This document shows positions 12,196-43,749 of a stretch of DNA of 43,963 bases, in pieces. The stretch lies in the sequence record SRR20825006_2499. One strand, 5' to 3'. A program made the position numbers and the translations under genes. Under the pieces are notes generated by a model. It saw nothing but the letters and a program-made list of their open reading frames with translations. It did not search any database and had not been told where the DNA came from. The stretch's first letter is position 1. Every line of letters starts with the position of its first letter.

Positions 12196-12205
12196 AATAT
12201 GTTTT

Positions 12206-17699: not shown

Positions 17700-17735
17700 A
17701 ATAAAACTAAATTTATATTCAGTAATAAAAAAACA

Positions 17736-18881: not shown

Positions 18882-18979
18882 TTTTAAGACTAATTATTTT
18901 TTATCAATTTTATTTCTGAATAAATTGCTAATTAAATCACTAAAACGATTTTATAATATTCAACTAAATACATCAATAA

Positions 18980-20032: not shown

Positions 20033-20050
20033 AAAACTAAAAACAAACAT

Positions 20051-20803: not shown

Positions 20804-20805
20804 GG

Positions 20806-21633
20806 ATGAAAAAAATACTATTTAGCGCCCTATTAATTGGTGCTATTGCGGCGTGTAATTCGCCTCAAAAAGAAGAACAAAAAGTAGAAGTCCCTAAAAC
20901 TGAAGAAAAATCTGACGTTATAACTTATGAAGAATATTCTGGGGAAGAACCAACTACTCCTGAAGAAACAGAATTTTACAAACCTGTTGCTCCAACTGTA
21001 AATCCAACCGAAAAAAATGGAGCTCCTAGTGATGCTATTATCCTTTTTGACGGAAAAAATTTAGACAATTGGATTAGCTCTAAAGACAGTACTGCTGCTG
21101 CTTGGACTTTGAATAAAGACGGAAGTATGACCGTAAAAGATAAAGCGGGCGATATTCAAACCAAACAGAGTTTTGGAAGCATTCAATTACATATAGAGTG
21201 GAAATCGCCTGCCAAAATTCAAGGAGACGGACAACACAGAGCCAATAGTGGTGTGTTTTTACAAAACCTATATGAAGTTCAAGTATTAGACAATAATAAC
21301 AACAACACATATACAAATGGGCAAGTAGGCGCTATTTACAAACAAGGTGTACCGTTAGCAAAGGCTTCTGTGCCAACTGGAGATTGGAATACATATGATA
21401 TTATTTACCATGAACCTGAATTTAATAGTGAAGGAGGGAAAATAAAATCGGCTACTATAACCGTTTTACATAACGGCGTACTAATTCAAGACCATACTGA
21501 AATAAAAGGTACTACCCCTTATATTGGATGGCCTAAAAATGAAGCGCACGGCGATGGCCCAATAAGACTTCAAGATCACGGCGATAATAGTCGTGTTAGC
21601 TATAGAAATATTTGGGTGAGAGAATTGAAGTAA
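20806..21633 (+). CDS. DUF1080 (3-keto-disaccharide hydrolase) lipoprotein, copy 2
   Basis: IAAC lipobox; PSDAIILFDG, QLHIEW, NSGVF, YEVQVLD, LQDHG, YRNIWVREL. Confidence 0.88.
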   Translation: MKKILFSALLIGAIAACNSPQKEEQKVEVPKTEEKSDVITYEEYSGEEPTTPEETEFYKPVAPTVNPTEKNGAPSDAIILFDGKNLDNWISSKDSTAAAWTLNKDGSMTVKDKAGDIQTKQSFGSIQLHIEWKSPAKIQGDGQHRANSGVFLQNLYEVQVLDNNNNNTYTNGQVGAIYKQGVPLAKASVPTGDWNTYDIIYHEPEFNSEGGKIKSATITVLHNGVLIQDHTEIKGTTPYIGWPKNEAHGDGPIRLQDHGDNSRVSYRNIWVRELK

Positions 21634-21657
21634 TTCTCTATAATTGACAGAAAAAAT

Positions 21658-21692
21658 AAATAGGCTACTGATACAAAATCAGTAGCCTATTT
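21658..21692. terminator. Bidirectional intrinsic terminator
   Basis: AAATAGGCTACTGAT-N5-ATCAGTAGCCTATTT with A/T tracts on both sides. A second hairpin, AGGCTCTAG-A-CTAGAGCCT, lies at 21714..21732. Confidence 0.85.
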
Positions 21693-21739
21693 TTATTTTA
21701 TTCTAATTTATTTAGGCTCTAGACTAGAGCCTTTATTTA

Positions 21740-23254: not shown

Positions 23255-23278
23255 CGTATTTATTTTTATCTATTCGTC

Positions 23279-26200: not shown

Positions 26201-26665
26201 TGCTCCCGGTAATGGAGTTCCATTATTATCTAGAATCTGACCAGAAACCTCAAACTCTTGCATTGTATTAGCTCCTATTTCTATGGAAGTACTATCTTTT
26301 GGAGCCGTTTCTTTTAATAAAATTTTTCGGTCTACTACTTCGAAATCTATATTCTGACCAATAAAAATTTGCTCTAAGGCTTTATCTATGGAAACTTTTT
26401 TAAGTTTTAAAGATACTTTACGATTTAAATCGACTGCTTCAGAATTAAAAATAAATTTAAATTCTGTAGTAGTTTCAATTTCATTAATAGCGGTTCCAAC
26501 AGTACCATTCTCAAGGTCTATAGTTATTTTAGTTTTCTGAGAATATGAAGTGTTAGCTTGCAAAGTAAAAATCATTGCAAAAAGAAACAAAATGGATAGC
26601 TTCATTTTTAAATCAAGGTTGTAAGTCCGAGAGTTTAAAACCCTCAGCTTTAATAGTTTTTTCAT
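23279..26665 (-). CDS. susC: SusC/RagA TonB-dependent transducer with N-terminal STN signalling domain
   Basis: STN extension, LDEVVVIGYG, plug KDASAAAIYGSRAANGVVIITTK, C-terminal Phe. Confidence 0.95.
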   Translation of the reverse strand: MKKLLKLRVLNSRTYNLDLKMKLSILFLFAMIFTLQANTSYSQKTKITIDLENGTVGTAINEIETTTEFKFIFNSEAVDLNRKVSLKLKKVSIDKALEQIFIGQNIDFEVVDRKILLKETAPKDSTSIEIGANTMQEFEVSGQILDNNGTPLPGANILEKGTSNGSQTDFDGNFTLTTSSGDAILVVSYIGFTSKEVPLNGQTNVTVTIEESAAALDEVVVIGYGTQTREEVTGAMSSVKAEDIVTQGSSTVEKALQGRVPGVQVESSGGNPGSGVRILIRGTGSLGNNNPLYIVDGVQVDNINNLNPTDISSMDILKDASAAAIYGSRAANGVVIITTKTGRSGENVIDFSTYYGFQNIINKADVLNASEWANVSNAAHDNAGLARLDIANNPESLGEGTDWQDEIYRTAPIKNYNLSASGGGENYNYSVSGGYIDQDGIVKNTGYNRYNLRLKSTLTKGRFKIGESVILSKEYWRRAEGLGGQGGNAVGSAPKMIPVFDVYNPDAVGGYGGAYGPVVDIANPVAQLNLRVPEDRVKKAIINAFAEVDIIEGLKYKLNLGYTSTEGYNYQYTYPYEVGALFTNLDSDLTETRYENDYVLAENTLNYKREFGKHKIDALVGYTYQDTKYRGLTGSKSGMPPGVMVLDAGTVNAAAGSNAWENVLVSYLGRLTYSFDERYILTGIIRRDGSSRFGGDNKFGNFPSIAFAWNLSREPFFSKIQETVNVAKLRMSYGVLGNQEFDDYRFSPAINLNTNYVAGQNQALWPGAIQTAFATPDIKWETSKSYNIGTDLSFFNRKLDFIFDYFVKENSDVLLQVPIPLSTGASANSPYINAGQITNKGFETSLSYSNSGDEFSYQITGTFASVDNEVDFLGTGSQQIFGGQPTHHGASATVTQAGLPVGAFYLIKTDGIFNSEEEVNAHTQNGQLIQPNAKPGDIRFIDYNNDGQIDEDDRQYLGSPNPEFSYGLGANFAWKGFDLNLFFQGTQGNKIYNGVRQDLEGMNLEYNYAKTTLNAWTPTNQNTSIPRAVINDPNLNSRTSDRFLEDGSYFRFKTLQFGYTLPSELMNQIKVSRCRIYVSFDNIFTITDYKGYNPDLGRTGSVLDRGVDFGHVAYPLSRTFLTGVEFSF

Positions 26666-26752
26666 AATTTTGAATTGTTAGCGTTGATTAATAATTTTTT
26701 AGTCACTTAACCAAATCGGGGGATGTGACCGCATTCCCTGATTTATTATTTG
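26665..26752 (+). ncRNA. Candidate cis-antisense sRNA to the susC leader (promoter box plus terminator)
   Basis: TAATTTTG -7 box at 26665..26672. A 14-bp hairpin at 26713..26744 has three non-canonical pairs, all G-U on this strand, and is followed by a U-rich tail. Confidence 0.55.
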
Positions 26753-26812
26753 TAAAATGACTAACTCTTAGAAAATGGTTGAACTAGTTTTTCTTCATAA
26801 AGACATTTTTAA

Positions 26813-27973
26813 TTAATTGATTACTATTTTATTTTCTATAACTCGATATTCTATATCATATACTTTACTGAAATAATTAAACACCTGTTCAATACTTTCA
26901 TACTTCGTTTCTATTGTGGCATTAAAATGTTCTTCATTTAAAGCATCATTATTATTAATAATTACCACATTGTAATTTCGTTCTAAGGCTTTAATAATAT
27001 TTTTAAAAGGTTCATTTTTAAAAACCATATCCCCTTTAATCCAAGAGGTATATATTGAGGTATCTACCTTGTCTTTTTTAATTACTTTCTTCCGTCTATC
27101 TAAAGAACCTCTTTCTCCAGGCACTAACTTTATTTCTTCTTTTTTAGATGAATTATTATCAGCTAAACTCACAGAACCATTCACCAAAACAACAGCTGAA
27201 GTTAGATCTTCAGTATAACTTTTAAGATTAAACTCCGTTCCATATACCTTTACTTCCATTCCATTAGCTTCTACAAAAAATGGCTTATGCTCATTATGGG
27301 CAACCGTAAAAAAGGCCTCTCCTGTAAGATATACTCTCCGTTCTTTTTTATTTGAAAACTTAACAGGAAACTTCAAAACACTTCCAGAATTCATTACAAC
27401 CTGAGTTCCATCTGCTAGAATTAAATTGTATTTTTTTCCATAAGGAATAGTTAGCTTATTGTACACTAGAGGGGAGGAGTCTTCTTTATTGTCTTGGTAA
27501 GAAAGCTTATTCCCGTCATTATTAGCAAGGGGTTGACCGTCTGGATTTTTAATTACTTCTTTGGCACCATTTTTTATGCTTTTCAACTCTCCGTTAGCCA
27601 ACTGTAAGGTTATTTGCTCTTCTCTAGATGATATTGATTCTTTAATACTCTCTGGGAAAAATTGATTTTTTGCAAGAAAACTAGCTCCGACAATAAAAAT
27701 AACAACAGCTGCATATTTAACTACAGAAGTAATTTTTTGCAGTTGCTGTTTTCTCTTCTCTTTTTTTATATCCTTTAAAAAATCTTGCTTTACCTTTTTT
27801 AAATCTGGTTGATTCATTGCGATAGCTATTGCGAAATGCGTTTCAATATAAGTTTTAAATACTTTTGCATTATTATCATTCTCAATCCATTCATGAAGCA
27901 CTTCTAACTCATTCAATGTTGCAGCATTAGTTAAAAATTTTACAATAATGTCTTCTATTTTTGAAGGAATCAT
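26813..27973 (-). CDS. FecR-family anti-sigma factor
   Basis: TM segment KYAAVVIFIVG, LADGTQVVMNSGS, VYLTGEAFF, VKVYGTEFN, SWIKG; upstream of the STN-SusC. Confidence 0.92.
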   Translation of the reverse strand: MIPSKIEDIIVKFLTNAATLNELEVLHEWIENDNNAKVFKTYIETHFAIAIAMNQPDLKKVKQDFLKDIKKEKRKQQLQKITSVVKYAAVVIFIVGASFLAKNQFFPESIKESISSREEQITLQLANGELKSIKNGAKEVIKNPDGQPLANNDGNKLSYQDNKEDSSPLVYNKLTIPYGKKYNLILADGTQVVMNSGSVLKFPVKFSNKKERRVYLTGEAFFTVAHNEHKPFFVEANGMEVKVYGTEFNLKSYTEDLTSAVVLVNGSVSLADNNSSKKEEIKLVPGERGSLDRRKKVIKKDKVDTSIYTSWIKGDMVFKNEPFKNIIKALERNYNVVIINNNDALNEEHFNATIETKYESIEQVFNYFSKVYDIEYRVIENKIVIN

Positions 27974-27988
27974 TTTGAGTATTTAATA

Positions 27989-28018
27989 GTATTACAAATC
28001 AAAATTATAATACCCTTA
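27989..28018 (-). promoter_or_regulatory. Promoter region of fecR-susC-susD
   Basis: Minus strand reads TAAGGGTATTATAATTTTGATTTGTAATAC. It contains a TAATTTTG -7 box (28000..28007) and an AAGGG...TGTA pattern that may be an ECF promoter (inferred). Confidence 0.45.
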
Positions 28019-28034
28019 TTTTTTTTAGCTTTTT

Positions 28035-28067
28035 TTTGTCAAATTCACTTTTATTAACATAAATTTG
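28035..28067 (+). promoter_or_regulatory. Complete sigma-A promoter for the ECF sigma gene
   Basis: TTTG-N21-TAAATTTG (-33 and -7 elements). Confidence 0.65.
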
Positions 28068-28096
28068 AGGTTTAACAACCTGCCAACCCACAATTT

Positions 28097-28669
28097 ATGA
28101 TTTACAATAATTATGAAATTTTTATAAATAGCTTAAAAAAAGGAGATGAAAAAGCCTATGAATATTTAGTAGATAAATACTATCGAAAAATATATGCATA
28201 CGCTGTAAGCTTAATAAACGACAAGGTTATTGCAGAAGATATTGTTCAAAATGTATTATTAAAGACATGGCAGTATCGAAAGAAATTAAATAAGAATTTT
28301 TCTATTCAGAGTTTTCTCTATAAATCTGTTTACAACGAATTTGTTAATACCTATCAAAAAAGTAAAGCCACCACCTATTTGCATTATAAATATTTAGAAA
28401 GCCTAGAAGAAATTACTACAAGTATAGATGATTCTAAAATTGAAAATTTCTTTAGAATAGTTACAGAAGAAATTGAAAAATTACCGCCTAAATGCAAAGA
28501 TGTTTTTATGTTAAGTAAAATTGAAGGTCTTACCAATATTGAAATTTCCGAACATTTAGATTTATCTATTAAAACTGTAGAAGCGCAAATAACAAAGGCA
28601 TATAGTAAGTTAAGAAATAGATTGGGAGAACAATACAAAGTATTATTTTTATTTACATTGGTAAACTAA
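28097..28669 (+). CDS. ECF sigma-70 factor (Bacteroidetes PUL type)
   Basis: AEDIVQNVLLKTW region 2; LPPKCKDVF...EISEHLDLSIKTVEAQITKA region 4; divergent from fecR. Confidence 0.93.
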   Translation: MIYNNYEIFINSLKKGDEKAYEYLVDKYYRKIYAYAVSLINDKVIAEDIVQNVLLKTWQYRKKLNKNFSIQSFLYKSVYNEFVNTYQKSKATTYLHYKYLESLEEITTSIDDSKIENFFRIVTEEIEKLPPKCKDVFMLSKIEGLTNIEISEHLDLSIKTVEAQITKAYSKLRNRLGEQYKVLFLFTLVN

Positions 28670-30549: not shown

Positions 30550-31539
30550 ATGTCACTACATAATATTAGACTTGAAGTAATGCAAACTATAGAAAAGAGA
30601 GTTGATTCTTTTCTAGAGCAATATCTTATTCCTGCTGACCAAATATGGCAACCTACAGATTTCTTACCAGATTCTCAAGGTGAAAACTTTTTTGAAGAAG
30701 TGAAAAAAATAAGAGGAGAGGCACAAGAATTAGGATACGATTTTTGGGTAGTATTGGTTGGAGATACAATTACAGAAGAAGCTTTACCTACCTACGAATC
30801 TTGGTTGATGGATGTAGAAGGCGTAGACCAACATGCAAGAAATGGTTGGTCAAAATGGGTTCGTCATTGGACTGCAGAAGAGAACAGACATGGAGATGTT
30901 TTAAATAAATATTTATACCTCTCTGGCCGTGTGAACATGAAAGAAATTGAAGTTACTACACAACATATGATTGCTGATGGTTTTGATATAGGTACCGGAA
31001 GAGACCCATATAAAAACTTTGTTTATACTTCTTTCCAAGAATTGGCTACCAATATTTCTCATAAAAGAGTTGGACAATTAGCTAAGAAGAAAGGAAACCC
31101 TATGTTGGCAAAAATGTGTAACATAATTGCTGGAGATGAGATGAGACACCATTTGGCATACCGTGAGTTTGTAAAAATTATTTTTGATTACGACCCTAGT
31201 GAAATGATGATTGCCTTTGCTGATATGATGAAGCGGAAAATTGTAATGCCAGCACAATTTGTTAGGGAATCTGGAGACCATATTGGAAGTGCTTTTGAAA
31301 ACTTCTCTAATGCGGCACAACGCCTAGGTGTTTACACAACTTTTGATTATATCAATATTTTAGATCGATTAAACCAATATTGGGAAATCGATAAAATTAG
31401 AGAGTTAAATGATAAAGGTGAAAAAGCTAGAGATTACCTAGTAAGATTACCTGAAAGATTAAAACGTATTTCAGAAAGAATGTCTACTCCCCAAGATCCA
31501 CATATTTTTAAATGGGTGGAAGCTAATGGAGTTTTATAA
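30550..31539 (+). CDS. Acyl-ACP desaturase (soluble di-iron family)
   Basis: WQPTDFLP, TEEALPTY, WTAEENRHG, TSFQE, IAGDEMRH (two E/D-x-x-H iron motifs). Confidence 0.92.
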   Translation: MSLHNIRLEVMQTIEKRVDSFLEQYLIPADQIWQPTDFLPDSQGENFFEEVKKIRGEAQELGYDFWVVLVGDTITEEALPTYESWLMDVEGVDQHARNGWSKWVRHWTAEENRHGDVLNKYLYLSGRVNMKEIEVTTQHMIADGFDIGTGRDPYKNFVYTSFQELATNISHKRVGQLAKKKGNPMLAKMCNIIAGDEMRHHLAYREFVKIIFDYDPSEMMIAFADMMKRKIVMPAQFVRESGDHIGSAFENFSNAAQRLGVYTTFDYINILDRLNQYWEIDKIRELNDKGEKARDYLVRLPERLKRISERMSTPQDPHIFKWVEANGVL

Positions 31540-31793: not shown

Positions 31794-33293
31794 CTAATTT
31801 ATCCAGAGTACTGCATTATCTGAGATAGAATAATTATTTAATTTACTATGGGCTCTGACTTTAATTAAATGAACTCCTTTAGCCAAATTAGTTGGTATAT
31901 TTAAACGCCATAAATGTTTACTTTGATGTATTGGCTTTGGTATTGCTCCAATAGCAGCATTTTTATATCTTCCTAATTCTTGAATTTTATACAGCCTTTT
32001 TTGAACAGGAGAAATGCCGTTATAGAGTTCCATTGGAATCCATAAATTTTCATCAAATGATACTTCAACACTTGTTTCTGGAGGAGCGGAAAAAACATTT
32101 GCATAAATATAAGGCTCATTAAGAACATTTAATGCAGTATCCCATTCTCTATTTTCTGGAACAGTAATTTGCATTTGTTTACTAAAAGGAGCTCCAGAAA
32201 CTTTATACCTTAATTTATACGATGCTTTATTAGTATCTAAAAACCAATATCCTTTTGGAGTGCCATCATACATTAATGCAAAAGGAATCCCATTTAAATC
32301 GTGAGGTCCTTGCCACCATGCCCCGCAAACTGCACCCGCAACTAATTCATGCACTTGAGATTTACCTTCTTCTCTATTAAAATACTTTTGATATTGTGTA
32401 TGTGTATGCCCAGTTGCTATAAAAACTTCTTTAAAATCTTTAAAAAGAGCGATAAAAGCATCCTTATCTTCCATTTCTTCAACAGGAATATGCATAAAGA
32501 TTTTTATTGTCTCAAATTGATCTTTCTTTAATTCAATAAGGTGGTTTATAAATTCTTTCTGCATATCATCTATTTTACCAACATAATCTTTATTTGTAGT
32601 TGGATAAATATTGTTAAGAACAAGAAATAACTGCTCCCCAAATTCAAATGCATAATAAGAAGGCCCAAAAAAAGACTTGAAAGTACGATCTCGGTTAGAT
32701 ATTAATTCTTGATGATAATCCATATCATGGTTTCCCATAACATAAAATATAGGAGAATTTATTAAGCCAAGAGTTTTAGATAATGGATCGAAAATATCAA
32801 GATTATCAAAAGATAAATCTCCTAATGGAACTATAAAATCGGGTTTATTATCTACTAATTCTTCAACCACCAATTTCCCTACATGGTAAACATCATCTAT
32901 AATATCAGCCTGAGGGTCTCCAAGCAATGCAACCTGAAGACTATCGGGTTCTTTATTAGGATACAATGGAAATGAATAATCCTTTAAATTTTCTGCATCA
33001 GAAGCAAAAAAATAACGTCTTCCATTATCAACTTTAGAAATATACCCTGAAGGCTTTATCAAAAAAACAGGATAGTTTTGTATTTTTTCAATTTTATAGG
33101 CTCCTTTGGCATCTGTAGTTACAATATTCTGTCCATTAGAAACCCCTATATTACTTAATAATTGTTCCCCGCTATCATAAATCCCATTTGCATTTTCATC
33201 TACAAAAACTACTCCTTCAATTGTTTTATTTACTTGACCAAAACAAACAAGAGGAACTACAAAAAGTAGATACTTAATACACTGTTTCATCAT
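31794..33293 (-). CDS. Exported calcineurin-like metallophosphoesterase (MetallophosN/C architecture)
   Basis: Signal peptide (CFG|Q), GVVFVDENANG, GDPQ, GDLSFD, GNHD, HIP, GHTH, GAVCGAWW, DGTPKGY; ATGA-coupled to the upstream gene. Confidence 0.88.
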   Translation of the reverse strand: MMKQCIKYLLFVVPLVCFGQVNKTIEGVVFVDENANGIYDSGEQLLSNIGVSNGQNIVTTDAKGAYKIEKIQNYPVFLIKPSGYISKVDNGRRYFFASDAENLKDYSFPLYPNKEPDSLQVALLGDPQADIIDDVYHVGKLVVEELVDNKPDFIVPLGDLSFDNLDIFDPLSKTLGLINSPIFYVMGNHDMDYHQELISNRDRTFKSFFGPSYYAFEFGEQLFLVLNNIYPTTNKDYVGKIDDMQKEFINHLIELKKDQFETIKIFMHIPVEEMEDKDAFIALFKDFKEVFIATGHTHTQYQKYFNREEGKSQVHELVAGAVCGAWWQGPHDLNGIPFALMYDGTPKGYWFLDTNKASYKLRYKVSGAPFSKQMQITVPENREWDTALNVLNEPYIYANVFSAPPETSVEVSFDENLWIPMELYNGISPVQKRLYKIQELGRYKNAAIGAIPKPIHQSKHLWRLNIPTNLAKGVHLIKVRAHSKLNNYSISDNAVLWIN

Positions 33294-35089
33294 AGCTTTA
33301 CATTTAACACCTCTAGAATTTTAGTATAAATTTCTGTATTCTCATAAACTCCACTAAACACTTCCGATTTTGGCCCATAAGCAAATACTGGAACCATTAC
33401 TCCTGTATGATCGTGAGTTAAAAAATCTCCTTCTATTTGATGTTTTTCTATATCGCCCTGTGGAATTCCAAAACCAGAAGTTTCATGATCCGCAGTTATA
33501 ATAACTAAGGTGTTTTTATGAGTATCGGCAAATTTTATAGCTTCGGTTATAGCTCTATCAAAATCGATTCCTTCCGTAATAATTCCACCAGTATTATTAG
33601 TGTGACCAAAAGAATCTATTTTTGCAGCTTCAACCATCAAAAAGAAAGGATTGTTATCTTTATTTAAAAATCCAAGCGATTGTTTTGTTAGCTCTGCAAG
33701 ATCATTTTGTCTCCCGTCTAGAATAGAAGGCACATCATTTTCCGCTATAAAATAACCTATTCTATCTGCTTTTGATGTTTCTATTTTTGTTTGATCTTTT
33801 ATAACAGTAAATGGAGACTCTTTTATGATGGAATTGAAATGATTTTTATTTCCTCCAACAAATAGAGTAAGATTACTTTTCCATAAATCTGCTGCAATCT
33901 GAGCTGTAGAATCTCGGTCTGCTCGGTGAGCGTAGAAAGCTGAAGGTGTTGCTCCTGTAACAGCATCTGTAGTAATAACACCTGTTTTATAGTTATGTTT
34001 ATAAAGCACCTCTGTAATATTGTCCAAAGGTTTCCCAACACTATCAACACCAATAAAACGATTGTTAGTTTTAGAACCTGTTGCCAAAGCAGTCCCAGCA
34101 GCAGCAGAATCCGTGGTAAAATCGTCCGCAGATTGTGTTCTTATTAAGCCAATATTTTTTAATTTGGTTAGCGTAAGATTTCCGCCATTTGCTAAAGCAG
34201 CAGCACTAATTTGTGTTAAACCGTTTCCATCTCCAATTAATAAAATAACATTTTCAACTTTACTAGATGCTTCATCTGAAACGAAACTAGGATTATAAAC
34301 TTCAGAAAAAATAGTTGTTAAAGATTCTCTGTGTTGTATAGATGACAAATACCTCTCACAATCATAAGGATTATCTGTATTAATAAAATCTACCCCAATA
34401 TTATAAAATGCCTTCCAAGCTGATTTACTATCGGGAGTTCCCCAAAAACGAAAAGGCTTATTATAATTATGCGCTTTATTAACTACTGCTTCCACTTTAT
34501 TAAGTTCAGCAGAAACCATTCTTCCTTTACCGTTCCAAACCGAATAATCTGAATAGGGAAGGCTTATTAAGGCTACTTTTTCCCATGCTTCATTAGAGAT
34601 AGGAGCTAAGCTTTGATAATCAAAATAAATAAAACTAGGGTATTTTTTATAATCTTCAGGTGCAGGTCTATTACCAGATATAACAAATTTAACATGAGGA
34701 TTTTCAAGTATGCTTGGATACTGTTCTAACTGTTCTACAACGGCTGCCAAGGTAGTTTTTGCATCAGATTTTATATCAATTAAAAACTGAATGTTCTGTT
34801 GTGAATCAAGATTTAAAGAAAGGGCTGTTTCAAAAGGCTCTAAATACAATTTTTTAAAAGTTAAATGGTCTTGTATTTCATCCTCGGCATGAGCAACAAA
34901 CAATTCATTGTCTACTAAAAAAACATCAATCTCAATACTATTGGCGCCATTAGCAAAAGCATTCCAAAAGGGTACTTTTTGTTGGTAGTCGTTATGAGAA
35001 TGTATTTTATAACTTGAAGGCATCTGTGCCTGAGCTAAAATAACATTGAGTAGTACTACTAGAATTTGTAAACGTGTTATGTAATGCAT
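33290..35089 (-). CDS. GDPD/PI-PLC-like phosphodiesterase fused to alkaline phosphatase (PhoA family)
   Basis: N-half: HSHNDY, SIEIDV, VAH, LIDIK, RFWGTPD, DFINTD. C-half: IGDGNG, TDSAA (catalytic Ser), ATPSAFYAH, EAAKIDSFGH, TADHET, DHTG. Confidence 0.88.
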   Translation of the reverse strand: MHYITRLQILVVLLNVILAQAQMPSSYKIHSHNDYQQKVPFWNAFANGANSIEIDVFLVDNELFVAHAEDEIQDHLTFKKLYLEPFETALSLNLDSQQNIQFLIDIKSDAKTTLAAVVEQLEQYPSILENPHVKFVISGNRPAPEDYKKYPSFIYFDYQSLAPISNEAWEKVALISLPYSDYSVWNGKGRMVSAELNKVEAVVNKAHNYNKPFRFWGTPDSKSAWKAFYNIGVDFINTDNPYDCERYLSSIQHRESLTTIFSEVYNPSFVSDEASSKVENVILLIGDGNGLTQISAAALANGGNLTLTKLKNIGLIRTQSADDFTTDSAAAGTALATGSKTNNRFIGVDSVGKPLDNITEVLYKHNYKTGVITTDAVTGATPSAFYAHRADRDSTAQIAADLWKSNLTLFVGGNKNHFNSIIKESPFTVIKDQTKIETSKADRIGYFIAENDVPSILDGRQNDLAELTKQSLGFLNKDNNPFFLMVEAAKIDSFGHTNNTGGIITEGIDFDRAITEAIKFADTHKNTLVIITADHETSGFGIPQGDIEKHQIEGDFLTHDHTGVMVPVFAYGPKSEVFSGVYENTEIYTKILEVLNVKL

Positions 35090-35104
35090 AGTGTATAAAT
35101 AAGT

Positions 35105-35135
35105 AAAAGATGCTGCTTTTTACACAGCACCTTTT
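35105..35135 (-). terminator. Intra-operon hairpin after susD
   Basis: Minus strand reads AAAAGGTGCTG-N9-CAGCATCTTTT; the single mismatch is a G-U pair on the coding strand. Confidence 0.6.
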
Positions 35136-35179
35136 CGGAATTAAAAAAAATCAAACTAATCCTTTTCTTTTTATATTGG

Positions 35180-36766
35180 TTACCATCCTTTATTTTGAGG
35201 GATTCCAGAGGATTCAATTACTCTATTTGGGATAAGCCAAACGTGCATAGACGAAGGGTCAAAGCTTCTTGCTGGCCATACAATTTCTGATGTATAAGGA
35301 GAATCTGGATTAGATCTATCCTCATAAATTCTACCATGTAATGGCTTGCTATACACTTCTTGTGCATCTCCCCAACGAACTAAATCGAAATGTCTATTTG
35401 CAAATTCTCCTGCAAGTTCTACCCTTCTTTCATGTTTTAAATCTTCCATTGTTGCATTAGAAATAAGTGGTAATCCTGCACGATTTCTCACTGCATTTAA
35501 TGGAGCATCTCCATTTTTACCTTGCATAATTAATGCTTCAGATTTAATTAATAATATTTCAGCATATCTAAGTATAGGAACATTATAAGTAGTAGTTGGA
35601 TTATCTCCGTTTGTATTTAAATAAGTTCCAACAGGGTTTTCCATTCCATATTCATACATGTATTTATTGAATTGAAATCCAGATAATGAATTTTCCGACT
35701 GGTAACGTCTTGTTTCTCCAAAATACTTAAATTCATCTCCGAAATTTAAGATTGTAACCCCTCTTCTTGGATCTTCCTCTTCAAATTCTTCATATAATTC
35801 TTCTGTTGGAGTATAATATCCCCATCCATTATATTTACCCCATCCTTTATTTTCTAGCATAACTCCTGGTAATTTACTTCCATCGTCAACTCCAGAATCT
35901 ACAGACCAAATATATTCTGAAGTCCAGTTATTTAAATGGCTATGTAACAACCTATAATCTTCATCAGGATTATCTGTATCTATTAATGCTCTTCCAGATC
36001 CAGAATTTGTTACTGCATCAGCGTATTTTACTGCAAGGTCAAATTTAGAAGCATCATACTGTCCCCAATACAAATATGTTTTTGCTAGGTATCCTAATGC
36101 TGCGTCTTTATGAGCTCTTCCATAATCTTCAGTATTATACTCGGTAAATAATGGTAATAAATCTGCCGCCTTAGTTAGATCTTCCACAATAAAACTGTAA
36201 TTCTCTATAACACTTGCAGGTCTTGAGTAACTTCCAGCTTCATTATCCATATTTTCTTCAGTAATAATTGGCACACCTCCATTTTCTCCATTATCTCCAT
36301 ACGAATGAGCTAACCAGAAATAATGAAAACCACGCATAAAATAGGCTTCTCCTAACAAACGATTTTTTAAATTCTCATCAATATCCATTGCAGGGACATT
36401 ACGTATAATATCATTAGCTCTTCGTATAATTTTATACGACTGAGGGTACATCCAATATATATAACCTTCATCTCCAGTAATATTGAAGTTTTTTATGTTA
36501 TCTGCTTCTGCTTTAATACGTCCAGTTATCATATCATCAGACGCATTAATGAACCAGAAAAAACCTCTAGAAAACATATCTTCATCTTTCATATAAAAAT
36601 ACATACTATTAGTTGCCTCTATAGCATCTTGTTGAGACTGCCAAAAATTCTCATAAGATATATTTCCTTTGGGCTCTAAATTTGTAAAATCATCTGAACA
36701 AGATGTGCTGAAAATACTTAAGCATATTAGCAGAAGTATTATTTTATTATTTATATTTTTTTTCAT
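35180..36766 (-). CDS. susD: RagB/SusD family lipoprotein
   Basis: TSCSDDF lipobox, GEAYFMRGFHYF, GRAHKDAA, LRYAEILL, HERRVELAGE, QNKGW. Confidence 0.93.
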   Translation of the reverse strand: MKKNINNKIILLLICLSIFSTSCSDDFTNLEPKGNISYENFWQSQQDAIEATNSMYFYMKDEDMFSRGFFWFINASDDMITGRIKAEADNIKNFNITGDEGYIYWMYPQSYKIIRRANDIIRNVPAMDIDENLKNRLLGEAYFMRGFHYFWLAHSYGDNGENGGVPIITEENMDNEAGSYSRPASVIENYSFIVEDLTKAADLLPLFTEYNTEDYGRAHKDAALGYLAKTYLYWGQYDASKFDLAVKYADAVTNSGSGRALIDTDNPDEDYRLLHSHLNNWTSEYIWSVDSGVDDGSKLPGVMLENKGWGKYNGWGYYTPTEELYEEFEEEDPRRGVTILNFGDEFKYFGETRRYQSENSLSGFQFNKYMYEYGMENPVGTYLNTNGDNPTTTYNVPILRYAEILLIKSEALIMQGKNGDAPLNAVRNRAGLPLISNATMEDLKHERRVELAGEFANRHFDLVRWGDAQEVYSKPLHGRIYEDRSNPDSPYTSEIVWPARSFDPSSMHVWLIPNRVIESSGIPQNKGW

Positions 36767-36794
36767 AATTAAGTTTTTATAGTAATTATCCTTT

Positions 36795-39700
36795 TTAAAA
36801 TGAGAATGACAATCCTAAAGAGTATGTTTTAGATAATGGATACCTTCCAACATCTAAACCGTTTCCACCAACTTCAGGATCCATTCCAGAATAATCTGTT
36901 ATTGTAAATAAGTTTTCACCTGAAAAGAATAAGCGTAATGTAGAAGAAGCACTTATTTTATTCATCACTTGAGATGGTATTGTATACCCAAGTGTTACAT
37001 TTTTCAGTCTCAAATAAGATCCATTTTCAAGATACCAACTAGAGGCATTCCCAAAGTTAGCATTGTTATCACTAGTAGATATCCTTGGAATATCTGTATT
37101 TGTATTTTCTGGAGACCATGCATTTAAAACTCTATTGTCTAGATTATACCCCTGTAATGCAGCGTTATATGTGCTGAATTTATACGCATTGAAAACCTCT
37201 ACACTTCCAACTCCTTGGAAAAGAGTATTTAAATCGAAGCCTTTATAATTTAAATTAAAACCAAAGCTATAAGTCAAATCTGGAATATAGCTTCCCATAA
37301 AAGTTTTATCATCATTATCTATCTTCCCATCTTCATTGGTGTCGACAAATTTAAAGTCGCCCGGAACAGCATTAGGTTGAATAAGTTTTCCATCCTTTTG
37401 ATGAGCATCTATTTCTGCTTGACTTTGGAAAATTCCTGCATAAGGAATTAGATTATATGAATACAATCCTTGTCCAACTTCAGATCTAAAAGGAGTAAGC
37501 ACCCCTCTAACATTATCTGTATGGTTTATATAGTCAACTCCAGATTCATTATATCCATCTAGATTAATCAACTCATTACTTAAGGTGCTTAAATTTGCAA
37601 ACACCCCAAACTTCAATCCATTAGTAAGCGTTTTATTATAATTTACAGCAAACTCCCATCCTTTATTTTCTACTTCTCCTCCATTAACATCTGCAGAAGA
37701 GGTTCCTTGGTGTAAATCTTCCAATCCAGGCACAATCATTCCCTTTGTATTTTTCTTAAAATAATCTACTGTTAAAGTTAGACTGTTCTTAAAAAATCCA
37801 GCATCTAAACCAAAATCTATAGATTCTGATGTTTCCCATTTAAGATTTGGATTGGATTGTCTTCCAACAAAAACTCCTTTATAATCTAAACTTCCATTTT
37901 CACCCAATATTACCTGAGTAGTATTTAAAGGAACATCAAAAGAATAATACCCTACCGAATTAATATTTCCAATTTGACCCCATGATGCTCTCAATTTTAA
38001 ATTATTAATGGTATTGCTATTGAAAAATGATTCGTTAGAAATATTCCAACCAGCAGAGGCAGCAGGAAAATAATCAGATTGGTTATCTGTTGCCAATCGA
38101 GATGTTTCGTCTCTACGAATACTTGCAGAAATAAAATACCTACTATCAAAATTATACATTAATCGTCCAATTGCAGAAGTTAAAGCGTCTTCATAAACTT
38201 CTGTTATAGGAGTACGTATTTCTGTAGCATTCCCCATGTATTGATTAAAACTACCTTCATTACTAAATCCTCTTCCTTCTTGGTAGTAATATTCATAATT
38301 CACTTTTTGAGCAGAATGAATGGCTGTAAGATTTAAATTATGACTCCCAAAAGTCTTAGCGTATGTAAGTTGGTTATCCCAAACCCACTGTTTTCTATTT
38401 GAATAACTTTGATATAAGAAGTTTTGCTCATTAGTTCTCCCAGATTCTGGCACTCTAGGAACAAATCTTTTATAATCTGTATTTGTATAATTATAGCTAT
38501 AAGAAGATTTAAAACTCAACCCATCTAAAATATCATATTTACCATACACATTAGCATTAATAAAGTTTACTGGATTTGTAGTTGTAGGTCTAAGTAAAAG
38601 CGCCATAGGATTATAAACATCTCCATAAGCCCCTGCAAATTGTGACAAATCTGCTGGTGCAACTCCATGAAATTCTCCTTGCTCATTATATACAGGAGCT
38701 GCAGAAGGCATATAAATTGCATTTATGATTGTTCCTGAATACCCACTTGATGTATTTGTTCCTGTTGCTTCTGTTGAAGAATAGTAAACATTTTCTCCAA
38801 CCGTAAATTTATCGGTAACATCTATGTCTGTTTTAACTCTAAAAGAATAACGCTCTGATTGTGTTCCTACAAGCACCCCTTCTTTTTTATTATAATTAAA
38901 AGAAGTTAAATAATTTACATTATCTGAAGCACCATTTACATTCACATTTGCATTATATATTGGGGCATCTCTAAAAATTTCGTCAACCCAATCGGTTCTT
39001 GTTACTTGCCCCCATGGATTTTCGGTTGCATTATGAGCAGATTGTCTAGGTTTTCCAGAATTATCGGCTGCCAAATTATATATATCTGCCTGTTGTTTAG
39101 CGTTTAATGCTGAAGGTAAATTAGTTGCAGATTGAAATGCCGTGTACATATCTACGCTAACTACTGGCTTCCCTTTTATTCCGTTTTTAGTTTCAATTAC
39201 AATAACTCCAGATGCTGCTTGTGCCCCATAAATTGCCGCAGATGCCGCGTCTTTTAACACAGACACCGATTTAATATCGTTTGGATTTATTGGGGGACCA
39301 TAATAAGGAACTCCATCTACAACAGTTAATGGCGATTCATCTGCAAGAGACCCCTGACCTCTAATTACAATTCTACCTGCCGCCGATGGATCTCCACCTT
39401 GCTGTAACACAGTTACCCCAGGTAAATTACCCTGTAAAAAATCTGTGAAATTAGTTACTGGGCGACTACTAATAGTCTCTATATTCTCCACCTTTGCTAT
39501 TGCAGAAGTGATGTCTCCCTTTTTTGCGGATCCATAACCAATTAACAGCACTTCTTCAAGAGCATTTATTTCTTCCTCCATTTCAATATTTAAATGGCTT
39601 CCTTCTACATATTTAAGAGTTGTGGACTTATACCCTATATAAGAAACAGTAATTACACCACTATTTGTAGCTACATTTACCGTAAAATTTCCATCAAAAT

Positions 39701-39863
39701 CTGTAGTTGTTCCTTTAGAAGATTCATCATTCGGAATTATGGTTGCTCCTGGAATTGGCATCCCATCTATTTTGGAGACAACGGTTCCTTTAATTATAGT
39801 TTGTGCCGATGCGCCAAGGCAAAAAAATGAGCACAAAATAATTAGTAAAAATTGTTTTTTCAT
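36795..39863 (-). CDS. susC: SusC/RagA TonB-dependent transporter
   Basis: Signal peptide from ATG 39863 (MKKQFLL...ASA|Q), LEEVLLIGYG, KDAASAAIYG plug, C-terminal Phe; no STN domain. Confidence 0.95.
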   Translation of the reverse strand: MKKQFLLIILCSFFCLGASAQTIIKGTVVSKIDGMPIPGATIIPNDESSKGTTTDFDGNFTVNVATNSGVITVSYIGYKSTTLKYVEGSHLNIEMEEEINALEEVLLIGYGSAKKGDITSAIAKVENIETISSRPVTNFTDFLQGNLPGVTVLQQGGDPSAAGRIVIRGQGSLADESPLTVVDGVPYYGPPINPNDIKSVSVLKDAASAAIYGAQAASGVIVIETKNGIKGKPVVSVDMYTAFQSATNLPSALNAKQQADIYNLAADNSGKPRQSAHNATENPWGQVTRTDWVDEIFRDAPIYNANVNVNGASDNVNYLTSFNYNKKEGVLVGTQSERYSFRVKTDIDVTDKFTVGENVYYSSTEATGTNTSSGYSGTIINAIYMPSAAPVYNEQGEFHGVAPADLSQFAGAYGDVYNPMALLLRPTTTNPVNFINANVYGKYDILDGLSFKSSYSYNYTNTDYKRFVPRVPESGRTNEQNFLYQSYSNRKQWVWDNQLTYAKTFGSHNLNLTAIHSAQKVNYEYYYQEGRGFSNEGSFNQYMGNATEIRTPITEVYEDALTSAIGRLMYNFDSRYFISASIRRDETSRLATDNQSDYFPAASAGWNISNESFFNSNTINNLKLRASWGQIGNINSVGYYSFDVPLNTTQVILGENGSLDYKGVFVGRQSNPNLKWETSESIDFGLDAGFFKNSLTLTVDYFKKNTKGMIVPGLEDLHQGTSSADVNGGEVENKGWEFAVNYNKTLTNGLKFGVFANLSTLSNELINLDGYNESGVDYINHTDNVRGVLTPFRSEVGQGLYSYNLIPYAGIFQSQAEIDAHQKDGKLIQPNAVPGDFKFVDTNEDGKIDNDDKTFMGSYIPDLTYSFGFNLNYKGFDLNTLFQGVGSVEVFNAYKFSTYNAALQGYNLDNRVLNAWSPENTNTDIPRISTSDNNANFGNASSWYLENGSYLRLKNVTLGYTIPSQVMNKISASSTLRLFFSGENLFTITDYSGMDPEVGGNGLDVGRYPLSKTYSLGLSFSF

Positions 39864-40000
39864 GTTAGATTTTTGTTGATTGTTCAAGCGCAAATCTATA
39901 TCCATGCCGATGCTAAAAGGAGGACTTTAGATACTAAAAAGTATACTTTAGTTACAAATGACACCACAAATAAGCTTGATTTGGTGCATTTTAGATGCAG

Positions 40001-40037
40001 AAACATTAAGGTAACATTGAGAAAACAAATAGGTAAC
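40001..40037. promoter_or_regulatory. Direct repeat, candidate HTCS/AraC operator upstream of susC
   Basis: AAACA-N3-AGGTAAC at 40001..40015 and 40023..40037 (22-bp period). Confidence 0.55.
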
Positions 40038-40086
40038 TATATAAATTCTTCTTGGGTTTGCCCAGAAGTACTTTGTTAAAGTACAA

Positions 40087-43000
40087 CTACTTATAAGATT
40101 TTGGACTGGTTTTATAATACTTCTTAAATAGGCGACTAAAGTACTTCGGGTCGTTAAAACCACATTCATAACTAACTTCCGACACGTTCAACCTTTTACT
40201 TTTTAATAGCAAAGCCGCCTTTTGTAAACGCAAATTAATTATAGTTTCTGAAGGTGAAACATCTAAAACTTCTTTAAATACACGATAACATTTTGTCCTA
40301 GAGATATCCAATTCTTTTATCAAACTATCTACATTAAAATTAGAATTAGAAAGTTCTTTCTTAATAACTTCTATTGCATTTTGCACCAATTCCTCATGCG
40401 GAGAAGACCCTAATATTGTATTTGCTATTTGCAGCCCGTCTGCATGATTTTCATAAGTATTTTTGGCTTTGTATTGAGCAATTATTTTTTTTATTTGCTT
40501 TTGAAAAAAAGACGGACTTACAGGCATATAAATCATTAAATCTGCTCCGTTCTCAATAATTCGCTCTTGTAAATTAACATCCACCTTTTCTAAAACCCAT
40601 ACCACAGGAGCTTTTAGGGTTTTAGTACTCTTTAAAAATGTAGTTATTTCGGTATCAAAAAAACGATTATAGGCAATCAAAGCATGAATTTCTTTTTTAT
40701 TTACTATGGATGAAACAGTTTTTGAAGTGTTTTCAAAAACAAGAGTATAATTAGAGTTGTTTAGAAGCTGACCCACAATTTCATTATCTTCTTTTTTACA
40801 AAAAACTAAAATTGTATTTCCTTTAATAACCCCTTCATCAGAAGCAGTATCAAAATGCTCCATATAAGAAATACTAGAACTTATAAGTTCTTTAGACGTA
40901 GTAATAGGAATATTTGTTTGTAATGAAAAAGCAGTAGCTATATTAGTCTCACAAGTTCCATTTAAGTCATTCAATAAAATTGAAAATGCTTTAAAATATG
41001 GGCTAAATAATGTTATACTATTCCATTTTTCAATTAAAATTGGACAGTTAGAATTTATAGAAAGTAATAAGGTATTGGTGCCTAAAGAAATACTTATATT
41101 GATACTGCTTTTTGGCGTAAGATATTTTATTATATCAGTAAAAATATACTGAAAAAGGAGCTTCAATCTAAGTACATCTACCTCTATAATAGTTGCTTCA
41201 TTATTCGATTTAAACTCAAATTTTACTTCCGTATCTTTTATTTCATCTAAATGAAGCTCAACTATTAACTGATTTACAAACGGTTCTATATCTATTTTAG
41301 AAAGGTAAGGTTTTCCTATTTTTTTAACTTGATCTAAATAATCCCACTCTGAAATCAAATTTATTAGATTGGTAATTTCTTTCTGTAAGTTAGTATTAAG
41401 ACTTCCTTGATGCTTAAGCTGATTAACATTTGATAAAATTCGGGACAACGGTTTTTTAAATTCAATTAAGATAAACTCCTTAAACTTATCCAATTCAAAA
41501 TCCTTATTTTTAATTTTGCTATGCAATTTTATCAACTCATTGCTCTTAGCCTCTATGGAGGCATTTGTTTCTTCTAAAGAATTTTTTTGAGAATTTATTA
41601 AACTTGTACGCTCTTCAATTTTCTTTTCCAGAATTATCTCTTTAAGCCTAGATTTTCTGTTATTGAATTTAATAATTCCTACAACTACAACTATTAATAA
41701 ACTCCCCATAAACATATAAAACCACCATGCCAGATAGAATGGGGTTTCAATTTTTAATGTAAAAAAGCTTGGAAGAATAGCCTCATCAATTTTAACAAAA
41801 AAATCATAGTCTCCAGAAGGGATATTCTCATACTTAATAGATGTATTAGTATAAAGCATCCATTCTTTATTATACCCCTTTAAACGATAAAAAATCTTTT
41901 TAGAACTCAGTCCATAATCTATAGGAATAATGTTTACAGAAATTTCATTTTTAGCATGTGGCTTTACTAACTTCTTACTAAAATTCTCCTGTCCATCTAC
42001 TAAAAGCTTAATATTTGGCGTAGGATTATTAATTACATAAGAATTTGGCTGAAAATAATTAAGACCGCTTATTCCTCCATAATAAAGGGTTTCTTCTGGT
42101 GCCTTATAAAAAGCTCCTTCAGAGAACTCATTATCTTGCAAACCATAATCTATAGGTATTTTATAAATTTCATAAGTTCCTGCATTAATTGCTACTATTC
42201 CTTTGGTGGTACTTGCCCAAAATTTATCTTTACTCTGCAAAACACTATATACCATATGGCTAGGCAAATTATTTGCCTCTGTTATAGTTTTAAAAACGCC
42301 TTTATCTAAATGATAGATACTAATTCCTCCTAAAGTAGAAATCCAATAGTTTTCTGAATTACTATCTCTAGTTATGTGGTATACACTATTTCCAGAAAGT
42401 CCTTTAGAAGCATCTATTTTTTCTATGTTTCCATTAATTTGGTTAAAAATAATAAGTCCATTTTTTTCAGTAGCTAAAAAAATAAGATCCCCATTAATTA
42501 AAACATTCCGAAAATGATACTTTGCTAATTTATCTTGATGTTCAAACTCAATAAAACTATTTTTTTTGGTATCATATTTTGCTAATCCACCCCAACATGT
42601 TATCCAAATATTATTATTTATATCTTCATAAAAATTATAATTTCTATTGTTCGGCAAGTTTTCTTCTAAATTTGCATCATAAAGCGAATAACCCTTACTT
42701 CCAATTTTTATTATCCCTGCGTAAGATCCTACCCAGATAGTCCCATCTGAAGCGGTATATAAACTTCTAATTCTATTCCAATCTGGATTTGAGTTTGCTT
42801 CTTTTATTTTATACGGAAGAAAATAATTTTCAGAATTTAACCTGTATACCAGTCCATTACTGTAATATCCTAACCATAACGTTTGGTTATCATCTTTTGT
42901 AATTGCCCGTATTGTTCCTTTTGGAAGATTTGGCTGTTTGGTAGGATGGGGTAAAATGGTGGTTATTTGTTGTGACTCATTATACACCATACTCAATCCG

Positions 43001-43749
43001 CCATCTTTATATCCGAGCCAGATATTTCCAAAGGCATCCTCATAAACACACTCTATTTCGTTTGTAGATAAACTATAAGGAGCATATACATCAAAGGTAT
43101 AGTGTTGAAAAGAGAGATTATTACTATTGGAAGTTCCAGATTTAAAATACAGTCCGTTACTCTCTGTTGCATACCATATATTATCCTTACTATCCAAAAG
43201 GATATCATTGATTTTAATATTAGGTTCTTTTTTAAGAAAATTTCTCTTTAAAGCTTCATATTTTTTATTTCCCAATGGGGTGTGAGAGTACTTTGGAAGC
43301 GCTAGCTGCTCTTTATCTGAGAGCGTATAATACATACTATCTAAAAGCACAATGGGAATACTGTCTTTAGAAAGGTAAAGACCATTTAATTGTTTTTTAA
43401 AATGAAAATTTTTAAACTTTCCATTCCCGATATATTTAGATACCGAATTATTATCTGTTCGGATCCAAATTTCTCCATTTTTATCTTTAATGAAGTTAAT
43501 AACTACATTTCCAGAAAGTGATAATGTATCTGCTATTTTATGCTTAAATACAGTTATATTATTTCCATTATAAATATTCAACCCATCCCAGGTTGCTATC
43601 CATATCCTCCCATCGTTATCACTAATAATATCACTTACGGAATTATTAGACAGTCCATCTTTGGTTGTTAAAGGCTTAAATTTTAAGTTTTGCGAAACAA
43701 GATTGCTGGAAATCAATAAAAAGATAAATACAAAACGAGTAATAAGCAT
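40087..43749 (-). CDS. Hybrid two-component-like regulator (beta-propeller sensor, Y_Y_Y, TM, degenerate kinase and receiver, AraC HTH)
   Basis: GLSNNSV / IWIATWDGL propeller repeats, YRLKGYNKEW Y_Y_Y domain, WWFY TM segment, intact AraC domain (SEVSYECGFNDPKYFSRLFKK). ATG 43749 preferred over TTG 43776. Confidence 0.9.
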   Translation of the reverse strand: MLITRFVFIFLLISSNLVSQNLKFKPLTTKDGLSNNSVSDIISDNDGRIWIATWDGLNIYNGNNITVFKHKIADTLSLSGNVVINFIKDKNGEIWIRTDNNSVSKYIGNGKFKNFHFKKQLNGLYLSKDSIPIVLLDSMYYTLSDKEQLALPKYSHTPLGNKKYEALKRNFLKKEPNIKINDILLDSKDNIWYATESNGLYFKSGTSNSNNLSFQHYTFDVYAPYSLSTNEIECVYEDAFGNIWLGYKDGGLSMVYNESQQITTILPHPTKQPNLPKGTIRAITKDDNQTLWLGYYSNGLVYRLNSENYFLPYKIKEANSNPDWNRIRSLYTASDGTIWVGSYAGIIKIGSKGYSLYDANLEENLPNNRNYNFYEDINNNIWITCWGGLAKYDTKKNSFIEFEHQDKLAKYHFRNVLINGDLIFLATEKNGLIIFNQINGNIEKIDASKGLSGNSVYHITRDSNSENYWISTLGGISIYHLDKGVFKTITEANNLPSHMVYSVLQSKDKFWASTTKGIVAINAGTYEIYKIPIDYGLQDNEFSEGAFYKAPEETLYYGGISGLNYFQPNSYVINNPTPNIKLLVDGQENFSKKLVKPHAKNEISVNIIPIDYGLSSKKIFYRLKGYNKEWMLYTNTSIKYENIPSGDYDFFVKIDEAILPSFFTLKIETPFYLAWWFYMFMGSLLIVVVVGIIKFNNRKSRLKEIILEKKIEERTSLINSQKNSLEETNASIEAKSNELIKLHSKIKNKDFELDKFKEFILIEFKKPLSRILSNVNQLKHQGSLNTNLQKEITNLINLISEWDYLDQVKKIGKPYLSKIDIEPFVNQLIVELHLDEIKDTEVKFEFKSNNEATIIEVDVLRLKLLFQYIFTDIIKYLTPKSSINISISLGTNTLLLSINSNCPILIEKWNSITLFSPYFKAFSILLNDLNGTCETNIATAFSLQTNIPITTSKELISSSISYMEHFDTASDEGVIKGNTILVFCKKEDNEIVGQLLNNSNYTLVFENTSKTVSSIVNKKEIHALIAYNRFFDTEITTFLKSTKTLKAPVVWVLEKVDVNLQERIIENGADLMIYMPVSPSFFQKQIKKIIAQYKAKNTYENHADGLQIANTILGSSPHEELVQNAIEVIKKELSNSNFNVDSLIKELDISRTKCYRVFKEVLDVSPSETIINLRLQKAALLLKSKRLNVSEVSYECGFNDPKYFSRLFKKYYKTSPKSYK

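Follow-up and report, generated by a model that had tools for sequence, protein, structure and literature searches.

What does a SusCD locus take up when the only enzymes that it encodes are phosphoesterases, and which signals switch it on? The question is raised by a cassette on the minus strand of a 43,963-nucleotide stretch from sequence record SRR20825006_2499 (hereafter the window), in which domain models confirmed the five co-oriented open reading frames of an initial annotation: a regulator, susC, susD, a GDPD-like/PhoA fusion gene and a calcineurin-like phosphoesterase gene. As had been claimed, no glycoside hydrolase (GH), lyase or sulfatase model scored above its cut-off among the cassette proteins, the PF00884 score of 20.8 (cut-off 25) being a superfamily echo. 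The explanation that we favour with fair confidence, from comparison of sequences, is a Pus2-like scavenger of ring phosphates, probably switched on jointly by PhoB and a phosphotransfer-free sensor. Its new parts, a conserved hybrid two-component system regulator (HTCS) predicted to lack phosphotransfer and a promoter with two apparent inputs, are well supported. The phosphoesterase-only SusCD locus is real, but it is of an already known kind, Pus2 having been described, and less new than it was first scored.

The cassette and its kinship to Pus2

The PUSII locus of Flavobacterium johnsoniae, which is induced by depletion of inorganic phosphate (Pi), encodes FecR, PusC2, PusD2 and PhoA1 (pf00245+pf13653; Lidbury et al., PMC8115612), the last three being Fjoh_3251, Fjoh_3250 and Fjoh_3249 (PMC8115612; bioRxiv 10.64898/2026.09.03.749221); these and all further sources are cited from the accessible parts of their text. 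As described by Connolly et al. (bioRxiv 10.64898/2026.09.03.749221), pus loci carry extracytoplasmic function (ECF) sigma factor pairs, PusCD2 is an auxiliary route for growth on glycerophosphoinositol (GroPI) and phosphatidylinositol (PtdIns) in the absence of PusCD1, PusD2 binds GroPI with a Kd of 200-400 uM and a predicted stack on W297, and PusD1 is phylogenetically distinct from PusD2. We recovered loci with the order ECF-FecR-susC-susD-fusion in Flavobacterium, and the majority of their SusDs fall into the 90% cluster that holds ABQ06266.1 of F. johnsoniae DSM 2064, a protein that strain, cluster context and W297 mark as probably Fjoh_3250/PusD2. The window SusD is 44% identical to it over 525 columns (E 2e-143, below the BLASTP bound of 1e-100 that the preprint applies to Pus2 homology), with W315 pairing with W297 in the pairwise alignment, and this pocket Trp is kept in 141 of 145 members of the SusD family. 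The window SusC is 41-42% and the fusion 40-43% identical to their counterparts at loci of PUSII architecture. In a midpoint-rooted FastTree of 143 rows, the regulator-linked SusDs form one clade (50 rows, support 100) nested in a 124-row clade shared with PusD2. The initial proposal of organophosphorus import followed by periplasmic stripping draws support from this close kinship to a characterised system, and a Pus2-like organophosphorus locus is, on these alignments, very probably what the cassette is. Two points pull the other way: GroPI is not what PusCD2 prefers as a substrate (bioRxiv 10.64898/2026.09.03.749221), and the window SusD stands in a FastTree clade of its own, outside that of PusD2.

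Both systems share the order susC-susD-fusion, homologous SusDs that keep the Trp, predicted periplasmic enzymes and the lack of carbohydrate-active enzymes (CAZymes). They differ in that Pus2 has an ECF sigma/FecR pair and a SusC bearing an STN domain, whereas the cassette has a kinase-dead HTCS and an STN-less SusC, a separate SusD clade, a strong Pho-like array at the susC promoter and, at some loci, an added MetallophosN/C enzyme. Pus1 of F. johnsoniae likewise combines SusCD with two phosphoesterases, one of them calcineurin-like; its enzymes (a PI-PLC and a calcineurin-like GIPC-PLC homologue) are, however, annotated with other Pfam families, and it is ECF-regulated. The terms 'HTCS', 'two-component' and 'marine' gave no match in the accessible text of the preprint (bioRxiv 10.64898/2026.09.03.749221), and the genome tables of both papers may already list some cassette loci.

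A scan with the SusD returned 57 loci, 44 of them with a window-type regulator ahead of susC. An independent search with the cytoplasmic part of the regulator matched 11 of 301 Flavobacteriaceae genomes, in single copy each, and all ten loci fetched from it read regulator-susC-susD, then fusion. Across 56 distinct regulator loci, 48 carry the window-type (type A) SusCD, six an unrelated (type B) pair of 989/580 aa and two both; the fusion is present in 55 (the 56th stops at a contig edge), the metallophosphoesterase in 23, and the upstream neighbours fall into 40 different groups. Because the fusion recurs in 55 of 56 regulator loci across 40 upstream contexts, the arrangement is not a chance one: the five genes are a mobile, conserved Flavobacteriaceae cassette, whose stable core, given the 48/6/2 division of SusCD types, is formed by the regulator, promoter and fusion, the transporter being exchangeable. 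Many of its named hosts belong to marine genera, and the 90% cluster of the window SusD is represented by Galbibacter orientalis (NCBI name), which makes a marine flavobacterium the probable host. In G001, the nearest of the genomes compared, a related fusion follows a different SusCD under ECF control, and the window regulator has no match.

The unrelated second SusCD family (~985/580 aa) is likewise found paired with the GDPD-PhoA fusion at L092-L097, L104, L024, L034, L090, L091 and L109; these loci have the pseudo-HTCS, an ECF pair or no regulator next to them. In two Wenyingzhuangia genomes this family stands in tandem with type A with the promoter duplicated. At four Zobellia loci (L006, L007, L009, L028) the cassette, with an HGSNAT-like gene added after the fusion, adjoins a PUSIV-like cluster of phoB-phoR, a TonB-dependent transporter (TBDT) and a lipoprotein.

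A hybrid regulator without phosphotransfer residues

The regulator has the layout of a canonical HTCS, namely a periplasmic propeller/Y_Y_Y sensor, a transmembrane (TM) segment at ~671-695, DHp and CA domains, a receiver and an AraC helix-turn-helix (HTH), with predicted folds to match and 16+5 bp direct repeats upstream of susC. It differs from canonical members in that the clade to which it belongs (95 members, under selection) is without the His, N, G1, G2, Asp and Lys determinants. In the window protein I762 replaces the phospho-accepting His and D872 the N-box Asn, the G2 box is deleted, and in the pseudo-receiver Y1027 stands for the Asp and M1075 for the Lys. A search with residues 700-1229 delimited the clade as 65 proteins without PF00512, PF02518 or PF00072, separated from canonical HTCSs by an E-value gap of ~40 orders of magnitude. 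The phospho-His, N-box Asn, both G2 Gly, phospho-Asp and receiver Lys are found in none of the 95 distinct clade sequences, and the same positions are kept in 42-43 of 43 aligned canonical HTCSs; G2 is deleted, and Tyr replaces the receiver Asp, in all 95.

An AlphaFold2 model that draws on the clade only (pLDDT 84) retains the folds of the DHp, CA, receiver and AraC domains, its CA domain matching 4pl9 (Z 15.7, rmsd 2.5, 139 aligned) and its receiver 3cfy (Z 15.5, rmsd 2.8, 127 aligned), with the replacing Tyr closing receiver strand 3. Ratios of nonsynonymous to synonymous substitution (dN/dS), pooled over 14 non-overlapping pairs of which several are near saturation, are 0.14 for the sensor, 0.135 for the kinase core, 0.095 for the receiver and 0.05 for the HTH; judged from these, the dead kinase and receiver domains are under purifying selection. 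That the protein is a decaying remnant would account for the loss of every catalytic motif and for the gene being split in one locus (L027), but it is hardly credible against a length kept near 1230 aa, the new invariant residues Y868, K875 and Y1027, dN/dS values of 0.10-0.14 and conserved cognate sites. We are highly confident in predicting a pseudokinase joined to a pseudo-receiver, with no phosphotransfer. The initial annotation had proposed a dedicated, ligand-sensing regulator; it overlooked the lack of the phosphotransfer residues, without which the protein is predicted to be unable to signal by phosphotransfer.

Some observations sit less easily with an activating, phosphotransfer-free sensor: an Asp lies one residue past the Tyr in 8 of 95 clade sequences, the His of the S/CHIP contact survives in just 12 of 107 rows, and HTCSs that depart from S/CHIP-DK may act as repressors or bind DNA when unphosphorylated (PMC11253607). 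Looking for an HTCS with intact catalytic residues and a close sensor domain, with at most four candidates scored per genome, we obtained matches (E<=1e-45) in 3 of 301 Bacteroidota genomes, all of pseudo-clade length.

In the literature within reach of our search, which left most subscription papers outside, the only mention of a degenerate HTCS was a remark on BT4236, which has Gln for His (PMC11253607) and is reported there, unlike the window clade, as one protein whose His is replaced; the accessible text of PMC13292587 holds no description of a phosphotransfer-free HTCS clade. A precedent from an unrelated lineage is ChiS of Vibrio cholerae, likewise a hybrid kinase of the membrane, which binds DNA and needs no phosphorylation to activate, but which keeps phosphorylation as an inhibitory input and has another DNA-binding domain and a periplasmic partner (bioRxiv 10.1101/2020.01.10.902320).

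Repeats and core element of the susC promoter

The gap between regulator and susC is conserved across genera and contains two sets of repeats. The first is a GTTA array of three to four units at an 11-bp period. A matrix trained on 55 such gaps, the window being left out, scores at least 12 in 54 of the 55 training promoters and in 1 of 615 background regions; its top match in the whole window is the array at the susC promoter (18.9). Applied to phoB promoters it reaches at least 10 in 16 of 21 (shuffle p<=0.015 in 18 of 21; the run left out L239-L241, and L242 was scored separately), and it gives 22.1 for pstS and 19.3 for pstC. Conversely, with a motif derived de novo from the 21 phoB promoters only, scores exceed the 95th background percentile at 48 of 55 cassette promoters and the 99th at 18, and the window array scores 20.1. 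A PhoB-like gene occurs once in each of the 21 genomes (TIGR02154 and NF053854 are its best models, both scoring under their cut-offs); in 20 it faces a divergent gene, mostly TBDT-like as in F. johnsoniae, and in genome G002 it lies 3 kb from pstS; TIGR02136 was found in 1 of 21 genomes, flavobacteria being mostly without PstSABC. These comparisons suggest that the array is likely a Pho box, and PhoB input at the susC promoter is quite probable.

Several points weigh on the other side. Relative to pstS, pstC and TBDT promoters, the array is inverted and lies ~100 bp further upstream, which is not the standard PhoB activating geometry; it reaches 12 in only 2 of 57 ECF and 1 of 43 FecR upstream regions, and only 1 of 4 phoX upstream regions scored. 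The training and phoB sets include close relatives, so that the counts overstate independence, and a phoB in the host of the window is assumed from its presence in 21 of 21 relatives. ECF-type loci mostly lack a strong array, although PUSII of F. johnsoniae is Pi-induced (PMC8115612). The array might instead be read by another OmpR-family regulator, the locus being purely substrate-induced; the reversed orientation, the weak signal at PUSII and phoX, matches ahead of a small unrelated gene and the Riemerella 'PhoP' motif TTTAACA, which resembles that of ArcA and occurs at 583 peaks (PMC9603813), all favour this. The TTTAACA core is the reverse complement of the core of the array unit. We regard this alternative as improbable, the array being present at phoB, its divergent P-induced TBDT, pstS and pstC. 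No box sequence is given in the accessible text of PMC3547664, and no Flavobacteriaceae Pho-box consensus was found in literature coverage that left most subscription papers outside.

We also considered an antisense PhoB promoter that would read back into the regulator gene, and rejected it because 52 loci show no conserved -7 element on that strand. At the regulator's own promoter the three-unit score is a borderline 6.8 in the window, with 12 of 52 orthologues above the 95th percentile, and exact-pattern genome scans gave matches too sparse for a regulon. Two orthologous small secreted proteins of 115-118 aa from two genera (L209:1616-1972, L210:1092-1439) have a GTTA array upstream and are a possible unrecognised Pho-regulon member. 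PUSII-type ECF promoters (L099-L108) have in common TAAT and TAAC at a distance of 11 bp, with CCTACCC and a -7 element following; the pair may be a weak or variant Pho site.

The second set comprises three repeats of 16 bp, placed at +1, +44 and +65 past the last GTTA, and is followed at ~+102 by an element that we take, from the Bacteroidota consensus TAnnTTTG, to be the -7 element. Their spacing is 43/21 in 32 of 55 loci, 42/21 in six and 43/22 in three. None of 443 background regions, none of 21 phoB promoters and just 2 of 84 susC promoters that lack a window-type regulator hold a triple scoring at least 15; the repeats thus occur almost only with the cassette and are predicted to be the sites of the regulator. 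A scan for sigma-70 gave chance-level results, the sigma-70 model not being applicable here. The repeat pair matches the 16+5 bp layout of HTCS sites (PMC3878776). At two Wenyingzhuangia loci both promoter elements recur ahead of a second susC. A Bacteroidales locus (L049:6600-6931) has both with no adjacent regulator, which may be encoded elsewhere in that genome. The initial annotation had preferred substrate induction over phosphate starvation alone; the regulator-specific repeats fit the former, and with the Pho-box-like array the promoter is better read as responding to both.

The same arrangement could serve a repressor: the uptake locus would be unchanged, with the kinase-dead regulator a repressor or constitutive DNA binder, PhoB activating and ligand, or nothing, lifting the block. 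The S/CHIP contact is lost, BT2391, which also deviates at S/CHIP, represses its polysaccharide utilization locus (PUL; PMC11253607), repeat 1 lies directly against the Pho-like array, and the -33 region falls under repeat 3. This alternative is nonetheless unlikely in our assessment: tandem 16+5 bp repeats just upstream of a core promoter are the usual HTCS activator layout, a reversed PhoB at ~-100 would need a partner for activation, and the sensor domain is under purifying selection. That the sensor is an activator is what we would expect, with some reserve.

Substrate class, surroundings and implications

The fusion and metallophosphoesterase genes overlap by ATGA at 33290-33293, bearing out their proposed coupling, and the fusion gene follows susD after 90 nt that hold a 12-bp hairpin. 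Both enzymes begin with hydrophobic N-termini followed by Gln (Q22 in 106 of 106 fusions), a pattern that agrees with the signal peptides called earlier. The PhoA domain of the fusion aligns to TAB5 AP (E 5e-67), and its D287, S328, T381, R392, E487, D492, H496, D534, H535 and H561, presumably the Ser nucleophile, the Arg and the ligands of three metals, are invariant in 106 of 106 fusions. Equally invariant are H32, N33, D34, E53, D55 and H67 of the N-terminal PI-PLC/GDPD-superfamily domain, which we take to be catalytic. Domains of this type are assigned to cd08577, an uncharacterised PI-PLC/GDPD group (bioRxiv 10.64898/2026.09.03.749221). The metallophosphoesterase keeps its metal motifs (D126, D159, N188, H189, H268, H296, H298) in 26-27 of 27 orthologues; a PDB sequence search returned no solved close relative, only spurious matches, and a structure-atlas search only its own family. 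A fold search with the SusD likewise gave generic SusDs only, without a ligand clue.

The substrate had been called unreadable from sequence, which holds for the exact compound but not for its class: because of the Trp pocket, the PusD2 ligand data and the neighbours of related SusDs, a sugar or inositol ring bearing phosphate is likely. Among the candidates listed earlier, choline/ethanolamine diesters and nucleotides become less likely; a ring-containing diester in particular is an even bet. SusD family loci without a window-type regulator include GH92, GH125, GH63-like, GH20 or GH29 genes in 10 of 92 cases, and others carry PI-PLC, PhoX or phytase-like genes, neighbours that would fit glycosylated inositol-phosphate head groups or phosphomannan. 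Two Bacteroides muris loci (L059, L118) combine PI-PLC, a ROK kinase, SusCD, two EEP phosphatases, GH92, PhoA, GH63-like, GH125 and GH20, with similar loci at L146, L054, L144 and L131; they are candidates for breakdown of glycosylphosphatidylinositol (GPI) or mannosyl-inositol-phosphate, and our literature search found no paper on a locus of this PI-PLC/GH92/GH125 type. Because aminophosphonate-type genes adjoin some related transporters (L045:3469-6181, L091:13089-18002; aminotransferase/HAD, or DUF5690/FAD oxidoreductase/HAD/purple-acid-phosphatase), the SusD family is probably not uniform in substrate.

Such neighbours could also mean salvage of both carbon and phosphorus from a phospho-glycan (head groups of GPI, glycosylinositol phosphorylceramide (GIPC) or mannosylinositol phosphorylceramide (MIPC), or yeast-type phosphomannan), with the glycosidases encoded elsewhere. 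Beyond the ten GH-bearing operons and the PI-PLC with GH92 and GH125 in B. muris, this is favoured by the HGSNAT gene after the fusion in four Zobellia loci and by GH92 (two) or GH89 (two) following, at 430-460 bp, in four of the six type-B-only loci. The latter, together with the fact that in 8 of 56 loci the pseudo-HTCS stands ahead of a SusCD pair of unrelated type, also counts against the favoured scavenger reading. The cassette is nevertheless set apart from classical glycan PULs, and CAZymes are not consistently present in orthologous loci as the refuting case foreseen earlier would have it: a GH occurs in 0 of 49 type-A operons (loci with window-type SusD and regulator), as annotated from representatives of the first three non-core downstream genes. 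The Pho-like array indicates a P-driven system. Phospho-glycan salvage, which overlaps with the scavenger on substrate class, is therefore rather improbable.

In the scavenger model, SusC and SusD, PusCD2 homologues with the pocket Trp kept, would take up the phosphodiester of a head group, for instance glycerophosphoinositol, a glycosylated inositol phosphate or a sugar phosphodiester. In the periplasm the PI-PLC/GDPD-like domain and the accessory metallophosphoesterase would cut the diester and PhoA would free phosphate. Ligand on the propeller would shift the coiled coil, the dead kinase/receiver core relaying this mechanically to the AraC domain, and PhoB would co-activate from upstream, so that low phosphate and substrate would both be required, as in an AND gate; CRP co-activates in this manner beside AraC/RhaS.

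Coordinates of the cassette features in the window (susC: start 39863 is most likely, and the longer alternative ATG at 39905 is probably not a start, because it overlaps the -7 element)
Feature	Coordinates	Strand	Remarks
Pseudo-hybrid two-component regulator, 1220 aa	40087..43749	(-)	Reg_prop, Y_Y_Y, AraC HTH models
Four 11-bp units ending GTTA/GTTT	40001..40044	(-)	likely PhoB (Pho) box; reversed vs pstS orientation
16-bp repeat 1 (TGaAAcAAaanTnCnC type), abuts Pho-like array	39984..39999	(-)	predicted pseudo-HTCS site
16-bp repeat 2, 43 bp after repeat 1	39941..39956	(-)	
16-bp repeat 3, 21 bp after repeat 2	39920..39935	(-)	over expected -33 region
-7 promoter element TAGATTTG	39891..39898	(-)	~102 nt past last GTTA, conserved in 55 loci
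SusC-type TonB-dependent transporter, 1022 aa	36795..39863	(-)	TIGR04056, 837 bits; no N-terminal STN extension
SusD lipoprotein, PusD2-like	35180..36766	(-)	W315 = PusD2 W297
12-bp hairpin between susD and enzyme genes	35105..35135	(-)	possible attenuator or mRNA stabiliser
PhoA1-type fusion	33290..35089	(-)	PF13653 GDPD_2 + PF00245 PhoA
Accessory calcineurin-like metallophosphoesterase, MetallophosN/C family	31794..33293	(-)	PF16371/PF00149/PF16370

Elsewhere in the window, a plant-type acyl-ACP desaturase family gene (30550-31539; PF03405, E 7e-136) is convergent with the cassette. The region 11548-28669 encodes a GMC oxidoreductase, two Gfo/Idh/MocA proteins, two 3-keto-disaccharide hydrolases, TIM-barrel proteins and an MFS transporter, and its genes converge on an ECF/FecR-regulated SusCD pair (21740-26665) without enzymes of its own; we presume a resemblance to an oxidative, GH-free glycoside pathway.

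The chief regulators of uptake loci in Bacteroidota are HTCSs, for which His-to-Asp transfer is assumed to be a requirement. A conserved natural family without the phosphotransfer residues offers a direct test of the mechanical share of the HTCS signal. More tentatively, and with somewhat less than even confidence, we propose that this whole clade has given up phosphotransfer and acts as a one-chain transmembrane mechanical switch that senses imported organophosphate and co-activates with PhoB, in an AND gate of fixed promoter geometry, and that its promoters reveal the Flavobacteriaceae Pho box. The promoter offers exact, mutable sites for two inputs together with a candidate Pho box for flavobacteria, and the ligand of the regulator is a route to the preferred substrate of the Pus2 family. 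The cassette extends organophosphorus uptake of the Pus2 type to marine genera.

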